Source: Octopus vulgaris (lineage: Eukaryota). Taken from it: 64,000 bases of DNA. Location: contig OX597827.1 in NCBI GenBank assembly GCA_951406725.2, positions 12,276,001 to 12,340,000 of the forward strand. Direction: 5' to 3'. The position numbers and the translations under genes were made by a program. This document shows positions 16,585 to 60,590 of this stretch, piece by piece; the stretch's first letter is position 1, and each line of letters starts with the position of its first letter. The notes under the pieces were generated by a model. That model was not told where the DNA came from and searched no databases. It was given only the letters and a program-made list of their open reading frames with translations.

Positions 16585-18583
16585 AATTTAGATTTATGTA
16601 AAGAATAACCACAAGATTTGTCTATCCAAACATGTATTCAGCATATAAGCCAGTCCATCATGATGGAGTAATTTCCAAAGATGAGGAAACGGACAATGAT
16701 GGAGGCACAGTTGTTAGAGGTGCGAGACCTTCCAACAGAACCTGAATATATATTCCTGAAGAAAATTCGGAATCAAAGTTATTTATTCAAATGTCTTTCA
16801 ATAATCTTGTAAAAGACTTGTTGCTTTCTGTACACCAAAGGAAGGTAATTTATTCAACTATAAAATGTGTAAGTTGGTTATTATCAAATGTGAAATTTTA
16901 ATTTGGCAACATGCTTTACAGCAGATAGTCTACTGACATCAATGAGTTCTTCACAAACTTATCTCCGGTAGCATTTGAACTTCTTCATCACAGACTTTGT
17001 CCACTTGAAAGAAATAGATGATAACATGGATGTATTACAGGAAATTATTTGATACTACACTCATCAATGGAAGCACTGTGGAGATCTTAGATTTACTGGC
17101 ATGCTAATGATTTACAATAGAGTTATTTGGAGTACTGGAAGTACGATAGAGTACTGGAAGCATGATTTACAATAGAGTTGACTTTTGTCCTTAGGACCAG
17201 TTGTGCTTTCATGGTTCACTCTATTGCATATGAGTGGCACCAAGATCATTATGTGTTCTAAGGAAGAAGAATGTTCACTTTGGTCTTTTAATTGATTCCA
17301 AGAAGATATTTGTACCACTTCTCTTTATTATAATTAGTTTAATGAAAGAAATTTGTTAAAGCAGTGACTAAAGTCAATACATGAGGAATTCAATACCTTT
17401 CTGAAAAAAGATTCCATATGTGAGTACGGCAAAGATAAAGGGGTATATTTCTGCAAATCAGGGAAGCTTCAATAGATATTTAATTTCAATACCCTATCAA
17501 CACACAGGGATTAAAACCTTGGCAACCATTTAAGTAGTTATCTGAAAGCTTTTGGGAGAAATAAGCTATTTCTAGTGAGGTGGAGTTGAGAACCATTTTG
17601 GGGCCAATATAAAAATGAGTGGTTGATTCATTAAAAACACATGTCCAGCATTTTCATCAAGATTTTTTTCCGATAAATTTTGCAACGAATGATGAGTAAG
17701 AAGAGCAATTCATGAAGATATGGTGGCTGACTATGGTTTGATTCTATATTAGGACTACCACAAAGAGAGAAGAGCAAAGACTGGTAATGGCTCAAAGAGC
17801 CATGGAAAGGTCAATGCTTGGTATCTCGTTGAGAGAGCACATAAGTAGCAAGATCATCAGAAAGAAGTCCGGCGTGAGAGATGTCATCGCAGAGTATACA
17901 CGCAGAAAGTACAGATGGGCTGGACACGTCGCCCGGCTCACCAATAATCGGTGGACCCACGCAGTTGTCGAGTGGTACCCGCGTGAGCAGAAAAGACCAC
18001 CCAGAAGACCTCCACGACGGTCGAGTGACGATTTCAGGAGGACGATTGGGATCACGTGGATGAGAAGGGCGCGATCAGAGAGGAGTGGACAGCGTGCTGT
18101 GACCAGCGGTGTCAAATGGACGCCTGACGGACTGGTCGGTCAAAGTGATTAGGACAATCTAGACCAAGTTTATTACAGAAAATCCTATTCAAAACACTTT
18201 TGAAAACTTGTATAATGTATATTTTTTAATTACATGAGCATATAATTGTATCTATCATGTATAAAAGGAGGTTAGAATTAATTATATATAATTTTGATCA
18301 ATTGCGTACTCTGGCAATAAAAAATTTTATATAAAATACTGCTTAATATCAATTGCTGGTAGGGACACTATATTTCGTTTTTCAATCAGTGCTGGCTCTA
18401 AATTCTACAGAAAATCTGTAGGGATAGACTTAAAAACTATTTAATACATCTAAGTATAAATAAAAATCCATATTTCAAAAATTAGATGTCCTTAAGAAAA
18501 TCTAAAGACAGATTTGGAATCAGCATTTAAAAATGCATTCTAGGAAGGTTAATTTAATCTCCAATAACATTTAATCTGCAGTG
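16585..18583 (+). pseudogene. decayed Chapaev3 (CMC)-type DNA transposase, interrupted by an RTE insertion
   Basis: frameshifted motifs in the expected order: VYPNMYSAYKPVHH, FNNLVKDL, HQWKHCGDL, LMK/FVKA, STAKIKG, SLKTHVQHFHQDFFP, VADY; right end GATTTGGAATCAGC...GCAGTG. Confidence 0.75.
17756..18147 (+). mobile_element. 5'-truncated RTE-clade LINE (C-terminus of RT ORF plus 3' end)
   Basis: AQRAMERSMLGISLR...RWAGHVAR...RWT...W.PR..KRP; TSD ATTAGGAC at 17748-17755 and 18148-18155. Confidence 0.9.
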
Positions 18584-19509: not shown

Positions 19510-20010
19510 CTATTTCTTTATTACCCACAAGGGGCTAAACACAGAGGGGACAAACAAGGACATGAAAGGTAAAGTCGACATCGGCGGAATTTGAACTCAC
19601 AACGTAGCAGTAGACGAAATACCCATTTCTTTATTACCCACAAGGGGCTAAACACAGAGAGGACAACCAAGGACAGACAAACGGATTAAGTCAATTACAT
19701 CGACCCCAGTGTGTAACTGGTACTTATTTAATCGACCCCGAAAGGATGAAAGGCAAAGTCGACCTCGGTGGAATTTGAACTGAGAACGTAGCAGCAGACG
19801 AAATACCTATTTCTTTATTACCCACTAGAGGCTAAACACAGAGGGGACAAACAAGGACAGACAAACAGATTAAGTCGATTACATCGACCCCAGTGCGTAA
19901 CTGGTACTTAATTTATCGACCCCGAAAGGATGAAAGGTAAAGTCGACATCGGCAGAATTTGAACTCACAACGTAGCAGTAGACGAAATACCGCTAAGCAT
20001 TTCGCCCGCC
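19510..20010 (-). mobile_element. SINE family B head-to-tail trimer
   Basis: three units joined at GAAATACC(C/T)ATTTC; one unit internally deleted. Confidence 0.9.
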
Positions 20011-20846
20011 ATTGAGTAATGCTTATATTATTGACATAATTCATGTTACAGTGCATGCAGCAATGTTACAAAACATTAATATATATACAAGTGTGTGTGT
20101 GTCTGTGGGGGGGGGGGGTGTTATTTGCAAATATGTATGACTTATAGTATGTGCCACTTTCTTTAATTGTTTTAATTCCCTATGTAATTTCAAACAGACA
20201 TATCTGCCTTCTCAACCCTGCTGTCTCTTGTCCCGACGGATTATCTAAGATGTGATTATTGCAGAGGGAAAGGACTATACCAGCACTAAACTGGTGTTCA
20301 TCTTTGGTTTAGCTGTGTAGCATAAAGAACTTTGCTTAATAACATTATGCACTGCCTGGTCAAGGAATTGAACTATGATCTTATAACCATCAGCAAAACA
20401 TCTTCGATATACACCACATGCCATCATGTACAAATTAGATAAATTCAGTTCTAGCTAGGTTTTTATTCTGCGAATGTTTATAAAGTAATATTCTCTCAGT
20501 AAATAGAATGCAATGGTAATAATGAAATGTGAAAATCAGACTAAGCTGGAATTTCATCGATTAACATATTCTTCTATACACAATCATACAAACTTGGATA
20601 TAAATAAATAAATAAATATATATATATATATATATATTATGTGAAATAGAAAGATGAATAATCTTGTAGTAGATTAATCAAAAGTTTAACCGATACCTTG
20701 GTAGCAAAAATCACAGCAGTAAACAGCACGGTTGGAGGTACAACCATATGGTGTTGCAACCGTGCGTTGGTGCGGATAATTGAAATTAAAATATTATTGG
20801 TGAATTGAAGAAATGGAGCTGAACGAAGATTGAACAGAAATCATTT

Positions 20847-20939
20847 TATTTCATTCTACCCGTGTTTCGAAAGGCACAATTTACCAAAATCCGATTGAAT
20901 AATGGGACCATATTGTGTCTTTCTCTTCAGGAAGAAATA
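20847..20939 (-). ncRNA. type-I hammerhead ribozyme with intact catalytic core
   Basis: minus strand: stem I TATTTCTTC/GAA(T)GAAATA, CTGAAGA, stem II GAAAGACACAAT/ATTGTGCCTTTC, GAAA, stem III AC-ACGG-GT, GTA triplet; inside a TA-flanked insert 20638-20950. Confidence 0.8.
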
Positions 20940-21299
20940 GGAAATCCGAATATATATATATTCATATATATTTAAATAATGAGGCAGATAAATTAATATT
21001 AATTTAAAACCAGTAGCCTAGCATACAAAAATCTGAAAAATCAGAGAAAATTCTAATACATGTGTATATTCAAAGGTCAAGACCGCTAGGTAGTCGGCCG
21101 TATGCTAGAAATAGATCACCAACGATCAAACTACAAAGAATGTTCTCTAGAGGAAAATTCAGCAAACACCAGAACAATTAGGTGGGCAAGACAGATGAAA
21201 ATTATATAAAAAACAGAATTAATCACATATATAAGTATATATAAATATATATATATATACACGCATATATACATATATAGAAAGATAGATATGTGTGTA

Positions 21300-44254: not shown

Positions 44255-45384
44255 ATCAAAATAAGCAACAAGAATGACTCTGATAATTTGGTACAATTGT
44301 TTCGCACTACATCAGATTTAAGATGCTGAGTGCTCATCAGCCAATTATATACATTTTCCATTAATATAAAAGCTTTCAAATCAAGTATATATATACATGT
44401 CTTTACAAGCAGCCCAGTCCAGTTATGCCACTGCCTTTGACCCTCTGGTTGGTTGCTAGGCACATGACTGAGTCAGCCTCTGCCCATTAAAGTACCAGTC
44501 AAGTACAAAGGTTCATTATGAGTCAAGCAATTATTTCCTCAAGGTAAGAAAAGATTTTACAATCAATTTCCAATATTCTTATTACATACCACTTCATTAA
44601 TCCGTTGTCCCTTTACCCCTAATTTTTTAAATCTTGAAATGCCTCCACTTCTCCACTTTTCCATAGAGATGATTGTATATACTTTCATGTGATGCCCATA
44701 AAGTTCTAATGGACGCCTTGAACCGTTCAAGCTCCAAGAGGCATCAATGCAATCCAATTGAAAGAAAGGCTTTCTAATCAATGAACTACAGTGATTATTT
44801 GCACTGGGAGAGTAGAGGCAAGTCCCTTAACCAAGGATGCAATACTTACTGTAAATATACTAAATATTATTTATTTGTGGTTGAAATAAAAGCAAAAACA
44901 CCAGACTGGAATATGTGAATAGCATTATTAAAGGATTAAGCGATAAACCTATTGAGTAATCTTTGGTAAATTTCAGGTTTGTGTAAATATTATTCCAATA
45001 TTTTGATAAAATACTTTGACTTCTTTTCGGCAGTAGAATTTTCAATTACATTTAAAATCATTTTAATACACAATGCACAAATGGAATTATTTATATTCAA
45101 CAGCAAGCAATTTTCTAAAAGACATTCAGAAATATATTTGTAATTGCTTCATATTCTAAATATTCCTAAGTCCTTTGCTATATTACAAGGACCAGCTTAG
45201 TTTATCAACACACAAAGGGAATGGATTCAGAAGAATATTAACTAGTAAATTGATGAATTTATGTCGATCCCCGGAGTATTATGGGTGTGAGCTAAGTGAA
45301 ATGAAAGAAGCTTCACTTAGGAATCTAAACCATAACATTGTGTCAGCTCCCTGAGGGGACCCATCACTTCTTTTTCAGACACCA

Positions 45385-46510
45385 TCATCATTAGCATCAT
45401 CATCATTGTATATACATTTTTTTTTCTATACTAGCATGGAGAGTTCTACCCCTTCACAGTTTTCTTTCCATTTGTCATAGTCACTTGTTGTCAACTTTGC
45501 AAAGTTCAAAATCATAGGATCAGCTTTCACCCCATCTTGTTTAGGTTCCTTCCATTTGAATTATTTGACCCTTTTTACCCACCTGTCATCAACTACATTG
45601 GTCTCACATTTTGGCACAAAGCCACTGATTCTGAAGGAGAAGTAAGTTAATTACATCAACCCCAGTGATCAGCTGGTACTTAGTTTATTGACCCTAAAAA
45701 GGATGAAAGGCGAATCAACCCCAACAGAATTTGAACACAGAACAGAAGACAGATGAAATGTCACCAAGCATTTTGCCCGGCATGCCAACAATTCTTATTT
45801 CTTTACTGCCCACAAGGGGCTATACACAGAGGGGTCAAACAAGGTCAGACAAACAAATGAAGTTGATTATATCGACCCCAGTGCATAACTGGTACGTTTT
45901 TAATCGACCCCAAAAGGATGAAAGGCAAAGTCGACCTTGGCGGAATTTGAACTCAGAACATAACAGCAGATGAAATACCTATTTCTTTACTACCCACAAG
46001 GGGCTAAACATAGAGTGGAAAACAAGGACAGACAAACGGATGAAGTTGATTATATCGACCCCAGTGCATAACTGGTACTTATTTAATCGAACCCAAAAGG
46101 ATGAAAGGCAAAGTCGACCATGGCGGAATTTGAACTCAGAACATAAAGACAAACAAAATACCGCTAAGCATTTTGCCGGGCGTGCTAACGTTTCTGCCAG
46201 CTTGCTGCCTTATTGTTGGCATGCCAACAATTCCGCCACTTCTCTGCCTTTGTCAACCCTCATATTAATTCTATATCTGTACCAGTACCATCTTCTTTCC
46301 TTACACTACAAATAGATCTCTAATACCTATTTTCTTTGTTTATGTCTACATGTGCATGCTTCCATCATTCATATATGCTGACATTATACATGAAGCAGAG
46401 CAGGCTCAATTCATTTCTCCCTACTCTTCACATATCTTCTCATGCTTTCAGTGACCTTGTCTTCCTACCATGGCCATCTCTCACACATACCATACAATCT
46501 ACCCTTTAAT
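45385..46510 (-). mobile_element. decayed RTE-clade LINE 3' region with (GAT)n tail, interrupted by nested SINE B copies
   Basis: minus-strand remnants KGRLY, EDM*RVGRNELSLLCFMYNVS, KIGIR, ERRWYWY, VKAD...TSDYDKW; tail CCATGCTAG...GATGATG. Confidence 0.7.
45610..46250 (-). mobile_element. SINE family B dimer (45795-46210) inserted in an older family B copy
   Basis: 16-bp TSD GGCATGCCAACAATTC at 45779-45794 and 46218-46233. Confidence 0.88.
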
Positions 46511-60173: not shown

Positions 60174-60590
60174 TATTTCTTTACTACCCACAAGGGGCTA
60201 AACACAGAGGGGACAAACAAGGACAGACAAACGGATTAAGTCGATTACATCGACCCCAGTACGTAACTGGTACTTAATTTATCGACCCCGAAAGGATGAA
60301 AGGCAAAGTCGACCTCGGCGGAATTTGAACCCAGAACGTAACGGCAGACAAAATACCTATTTCTTTACTACCCACAAGGGGCTAAACACAAAGGGGACAA
60401 ACAAGGACAGACAAACGGATTAAGTCGATTACATCGACCCCAGTACGTAACTGGTACTTAATTTATCGACCCCGAAAGGATGAAAGGCAAAGTCGACCTC
60501 GGCGGAATTTGAACCCAGAACGTAACGGCAGACGAAATACCGCTAAGCATTTCGCCCGGTATGCTAACGTTTCTGCCAGTTCGCCGCCTT
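60174..60590 (-). mobile_element. SINE family B dimer nested in the Dong LINE
   Basis: two almost identical units of about 184 bp joined at AAATACCTATTTC. Confidence 0.92.

Follow-up and report, generated by a model that had tools for sequence, protein, structure and literature searches.

Hammerhead motifs in the end repeats of a young Penelope-like element family in octopus, and a private loop mutation predicted to impair one truncated copy

We consider it very probable that the hammerhead motif at positions 20847–20939 of the window (the whole 64-kb stretch of Octopus vulgaris DNA analyzed here) belongs to the end repeat of a Penelope-like element (PLE) that is young and present in many copies, and that a loop mutation private to this truncated copy would cripple the copy-copy pairing likely needed for cutting. 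The motif had been described from the letters of the sequence as an intact ribozyme and the best candidate for activity (hereafter, the original prediction); it is not a stand-alone ribozyme, but the end repeat of an element that this first reading overlooked. This kind of arrangement, with a hammerhead in a PLE end repeat, is already known, and PLE hammerheads have been described since 2014. The family itself is possibly uncatalogued: a limited full-text literature search did not find in print a PLE family with the window sequence, and young Penelope-like families appear in a 2026 repeat annotation of octopus, the accessible text of which makes no mention of hammerheads.

Reading of the minus strand confirmed that all the core nucleotides are present, with a CUGANGA core, a GAA and an NUH triplet in the order typical of type I hammerheads (Table 1). 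The structural details of the original prediction were also borne out, namely the G-C closing pair and the 11 of 12 pairs of stem II, the 9-bp stem I with one bulge, the GUA triplet (A17 is 20857) with its predicted cut, and a second hairpin (GCACGGTTG/CAACCGTGC) within the same insert. Stem III contains only two pairs, A15.1-U16.1 and C15.2-G16.2, enclosing the loop ACGG (20863–20860); as a monomer, this hairpin is predicted to be unfavourable by about +2.5 kcal/mol, in support of the earlier proposal that it may need a dimer partner. A loose hammerhead descriptor had three matches in the window, this copy among them, and the 93-mer folded with a z of -2.49, with 4/200 shuffles being equally good; the lowest-energy structure predicted for the window copy differs from that of a hammerhead. 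Rfam searches did not retrieve any hammerhead match in the region 20640–21230, even at E ≤ 10, nor any hammerhead model along the whole window, where the 150 matches listed, out of 241, were chance matches to simple repeats; the long stem II and its loop, together with the 2-bp stem III, probably suit the Rfam models poorly. Recurrence of the motif, together with its folding, is more than chance.

Table 1. Features of the insert and of the hammerhead motif, in coordinates of the window.
Feature	Position	Strand	Remarks
5′-truncated PLE 3′ end (pseudo-LTR plus tail), 314 bp	20635..20948	-	Equivalent to L036:7017-7330
(TA)n/(TAAA)n microsatellite, 3′ junction, target site	20598..20634	.	From sequence
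TA-rich flank, 5′ junction	20949..20975	.	From sequence
Position of the family short 3′ end (L036:7174)	20791..20791	-	Inverted partner arms of siblings stop here
Tail of 156 nt, delimited by the short and long 3′ ends	20635..20790	-	From comparison of sibling loci
Hairpin of the tail, with an outer stem of 9 bp and the palindrome ACCATATGGT inside	20726..20765	-	
Type I hammerhead motif	20847..20939	-	GUA triplet, predicted cut 20857/20856; stem II loop of 31 nt
Stem I, 5′ arm	20939-20931	-	Read off the sequence
Hammerhead core CUGAAGA	20930-20924	-	Read off the sequence
Stem II arms	20923-20912 / 20880-20869	-	G10.1-C11.1; 11/12 pairs, one A-C mismatch
Core GAA	20868-20866	-	Read off the sequence
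Stem III and loop, ACACGGGU in the window	20858..20865	-	Family form ACACGUGU, an 8-nt palindrome
Stem I, 3′ arm	20856-20847	-	9 bp, one bulged U

The only other clear hammerhead within the window (44340–44292) is a second type I motif on the minus strand (44283–44349), with a CUGAUGA core, a bulged 8-bp stem I and a palindromic ACAAUUGU stem III and loop that, unlike that of the 20847–20939 copy, is intact. A (TA)n tract occurs ca. 40 nt past this motif, whose repeat family is older (1,653 first-look candidates, with the best others being 76–87% alike along this stretch). Because the loops differ, the two hammerheads of the window could not partner each other.

A search of the same genome (2.8 Gb) yielded 1,250 first-look candidates; scoring of 40 of them gave full-length matches at 98–100% identity. 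Likewise, a 26-nt pattern covering the 3′ half of the hammerhead was found at 1,823 exact sites, and its reversed control at none. Several of 30 loci continue upstream into a common ORF end and, among eight that were extended, one (L036) is complete. This element is bounded by 331-bp direct repeats (3347–3677 and 7004–7334), each with a hammerhead, and contains an ORF (3718–6402) of 895 aa from the ATG, with a YRDD motif. The AlphaFold model of the product (mean pLDDT 74.6; disordered in 485–559 and 631–766) retrieved telomerase reverse transcriptases (RTs) as all the best nine Foldseek matches. In a feature search, the last 131 residues were similar to GIY-YIG clusters (0.95–0.96), and the motif AVY...YVG...R aligns with 18 homologues; assignment of this region as a GIY-YIG-like endonuclease is a lead. 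Sequence searches of Pfam, NCBIfam and PDB with the sibling ORF or its alignment returned nothing useful. The family thus displays the characters of EN+ PLEs: a single ORF with a telomerase-like RT and a putative C-terminal GIY-YIG domain, pseudo-LTRs, tandem and inverted insertions, and a one-ended tail. A tandem array (L077/L078; G000:C1, 119.51–119.53 Mb) contains at least three full 3.6-kb units that are 99.9% identical, indicating that the family is young, and one of these units keeps an open frame of 899 codons. Additionally, contigs from four other organism labels (X13, X16, X17, and X18) cover 29/29 bins of L036:6950–7325, so the family extends beyond the species label. In another locus (L029:575–940), a family copy adjoins the remnant of a different Hydra-type endonuclease frame, with an intact CxC...C linker.

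The window insert is 98% identical to the full-length sibling L036, with two private substitutions, at 20860 and 20843. It stops at the long 3′ end of the family, lacks the inverted partner arm, and therefore corresponds to the long arm alone, with its 5′ end 9 nt upstream of stem I; it is a lone, non-coding fragment with no second copy nearby. The tail is predicted to fold better than most shuffled sequences (20631–20790; z = -3.04, 2/200 shuffles as good), and the outer stem of its hairpin is mostly kept across sister subfamilies. By inspection, the 71 stop-to-stop frames of at least 110 aa in the window contained only repeats and transposon remnants. Two of these regions on the plus strand (17742–18152 and 37438–38183) look by eye like remnants of the RT tail of non-LTR retrotransposons. 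The window also contains units of one abundant family of 184-bp tandem repeats (19562–19991, 45796–46146, and 60174–60541), as well as a long, near-perfect inverted repeat of complex sequence (27344–27436), with a sub-cut-off match to a microRNA model, which is possibly a small DNA transposon.

Variation among sister subfamilies bears on whether the family motif could work as a dimer. In a sister lineage, for which one pattern matched 875 sites, three stem II pairs had changes on both sides among 22 aligned copies, where 89.8% of the cells were paired, against 35–44% in slid controls. Controls for this covariation gave a mixed outcome: the count of two-sided pairs was near zero in slid controls, but 264/500 shuffles were as good, and relatedness among these 22 sequences inflates other measures of covariation. 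In a sister subfamily with a GUC triplet, the palindrome ACAUAUGU occurs in 99 of the first 100 sites listed, out of 282; the loop center is CG in the family of the window and UA in this subfamily, and the palindrome is kept. Another sister subfamily has ACAUGUGU, with UG at the loop center, in 14/25 loci, allowing wobble pairing only, and G-U replaces G-C at 10.1-11.1 in 13 of the 22 aligned sister copies, indicating that the constraint is not strict. A palindromic loop center was also seen in 25 of 30 other hammerhead-like sites (AT in eight, CG in seven, GC in five, and TA in five), which are not independent, since at least four derive from the family of the window or from its sister subfamilies, and their flanks were set by the search pattern. 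Together, the compensatory changes in stem II and the swap from CG to UA in the palindrome support a dimer-type ribozyme in the family. In agreement with this, Cervera and de la Pena (2014; PMC4209133) describe the hammerheads from PLE end repeats as inactive as monomers and of low activity as dimers.

Stem III could arise when two hammerheads of a full-length or tandem transcript pair along the 8 bp of ACACGUGU; cleavage after GUA would follow, probably at a low rate and perhaps assisted by the protein of the element. Cuts at both repeats would generate a 3,657-nt unit (L036:3452–7108) with the whole ORF inside. The 5′ junctions of genomic copies do not accumulate at the cut site (7, against 12 at a control position). 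Genomic copies thus show no trace of templates having been cut, in line with templates that were uncut or religated; in contigs, the junction of a circle closed at the cut site would look like the tandem DNA form. It is conceivable, although on balance unlikely, that the motif is kept in the family as a structure or a protein-binding signal, and that transposition does not need cleavage. This would agree with the lack of junction enrichment, with the 1,823 out of 1,823 counted sites that span the cut site, and with the tolerance of G-U at 10.1-11.1 in sister subfamilies; besides, in the Anolis element, hammerhead mutants left in vitro insertion unaffected and no RNA reads ended at the cut site (PMC11167929). 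Conversely, the changes seen in the family obey catalytic rules (A17 or C17 at the triplet, a palindromic loop, and paired stems), and religated circles would also yield copies spanning the cut site. We favour a dimer-type ribozyme for the family.

The copy in the window departs from this pattern. At 20860 this copy carries G, against T in all 105 aligned stretches of siblings; one sibling, L002, differs from it over the 93-mer at this position alone. Genome-wide, the ACACGUGU form is found at 1,823 sites and another base at six, with the G of ACACGGGU occurring once (1/1,829). This T>G change breaks the dimer palindrome, and the predicted energy of the in-register dimer helix goes from -10.3 kcal/mol for the sibling to -5.5 for a mixed window/sibling dimer, with a single mismatch, and to -0.7 for the window copy. 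The change is also predicted to favour a misfold of the 93-mer, in which the new G pairs with core C3 and stem I is removed: the probability of the closing pair of stem I is 0.00 in the window allele and 0.36 in the sibling, and that of core C3-G5 being unpaired is 0.00–0.03 and 0.23–0.46, respectively. This folding contrast depends on the construct, because in a 159-nt context the core is predicted to be sequestered in both alleles alike. The family has a palindromic loop III (1,823 sites) and the window copy has neither this nor a stable stem III; we thus file it as a damaged copy of the motif and not as a working ribozyme. Its designation as the best candidate for activity is unsupported, given the drop in the dimer helix and the predicted trapping of C3-G5, and the window copy is predicted to be among the poorer cleavage candidates of its family.

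It seems improbable that the window copy is an active ribozyme, either as a monomer stabilized by tertiary contacts or in trans with wild-type transcripts of the family. Its core nucleotides, G10.1-C11.1 and stems I and II are all intact, the mixed dimer would tolerate its single mismatch at the energy given above, and protein help has been reported for a PLE hammerhead (PMC11167929). Against this, stem III is predicted to be unfavourable in the monomer, the best predicted fold pairs the new G with core C3, and single metazoan PLE motifs did not show cleavage (PMC4209133). Under the remaining alternative, the insert would be a short retrozyme or SINE-like element, non-autonomous and only similar to a PLE end, as could be suggested by its 314 bp without coding capacity, its start just upstream of the hammerhead and the proposal that animal retrozymes derive from PLEs (bioRxiv 10.64898/2026.07.22.740005). 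This is very improbable and largely refuted, because siblings have 5′ ends at scattered positions, with sequence that continues unbroken into the 3′ UTR and ORF, no short tandem unit appeared in the loci examined, and the array is made of full 3.6-kb units.

Two fixed 3′ ends and insertion into (TA)n were evident in a survey of 38 loci that followed the order of the sites listed on C1 for the 26-nt pattern. Of these, 25 contained two head-to-head arms on opposite strands, one ending near L036:7174 and the other near 7330, with both arms bordering (TA)n; one end was seen in nine further loci, with the sequence continuing beyond the fetched stretch, and four had a single end. None of the 38 loci contained two ends of the same type. 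The endonuclease would cut (TA)n, and the RT would use a pair of RNA start sites separated by 156 nt, a different one for each DNA strand, leading to head-to-head insertions of a short-end and a long-end arm. The window copy could then represent one long arm that halted 9 nt past the hammerhead and subsequently mutated as inert DNA. In Hydra-type elements, a zinc-finger linker is thought to direct insertion to (TA)n. We tentatively propose, and regard as somewhat short of an even chance, that this is a recently active Hydra-like family that lost the zinc-finger linker yet kept insertion into (TA)n, and in which priming occurs at two sites 156 nt apart, around a conserved hairpin and with a strict polarity of one per strand.

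In itself, the flagged copy is a minor, decayed fragment. The family, conversely, is a clean example for two questions in the literature, the role of PLE hammerheads and the origin of head-to-head insertions with a one-sided tail, and its natural variation, namely a double-change palindrome, two 3′ ends used once each per insertion, and (TA)n targeting without the CxCx5C linker, offers testable predictions. If our reading is true, the intact ORFs and the CG/UA palindrome swap would make it a ready system for studying dimer-dependent cutting and PLE integration; for ribozyme assays, the family allele is preferable to that of the window.

Judged by its sequence features, the L036 element has its nearest counterparts in the Hydra clade of C-terminal EN+ PLEs, as defined by Craig et al. 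(2021; PMC8557442). It shares with this clade the change of DKG to DKT, an endonuclease that, by inspection, has CxxC and CxH around the conserved E and N and no CCHH, insertion into (TA)n, and a canonical hammerhead in the 3′ region. It differs in that its N-terminal motif is RWL, instead of the RWK described for the clade (RWK or RWR in most homologues), and in the CxCx5C linker, which in translated family copies is replaced by GCSS or GCRS, with one Cys left; CxC...C is kept in 18 of the 19 homologues aligned, out of 29 matches. As the CxCx5C linker is missing, we designate the element Hydra-like and do not file it as a member of the clade. Additionally, its unit is of about 3.65 kb, versus less than 3 kb, its ORF contains two disordered insertions (about 485–559 and 631–766), and its 3′ UTR spans 0.6 kb. 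Compared by eye, the octopus family Hydra-1_Obim (2,507 bp) is a separate family, with a different hammerhead.

The hammerheads of the octopus family resemble those described for metazoan PLEs in PMC4209133: they are of type I, occur in both end repeats, have a long stem II with G10.1-C11.1 and a short palindromic stem III, and are found as many dispersed single copies and as opposite-strand pairs. With regard to integration, Frangieh et al. (2024; PMC11167929) attribute the PLE tail to a pair of sites at which the RT starts, and a head-to-head layout has been described for rotifer Penelope elements from Adineta (PMC3846280). Poseidon PAc from Anolis and Penelope from Adineta are comparable to the octopus family, as portrayed in these texts, in their two fixed 3′ ends with a one-ended tail, AT-rich target, head-to-head insertions, and low-complexity insertions within the ORF. 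In contrast, their tails are 30–40 nt long and lie inside the ORF, whereas the tail of the octopus family is of 156 nt, holds a long hairpin and is located entirely upstream of the ATG.
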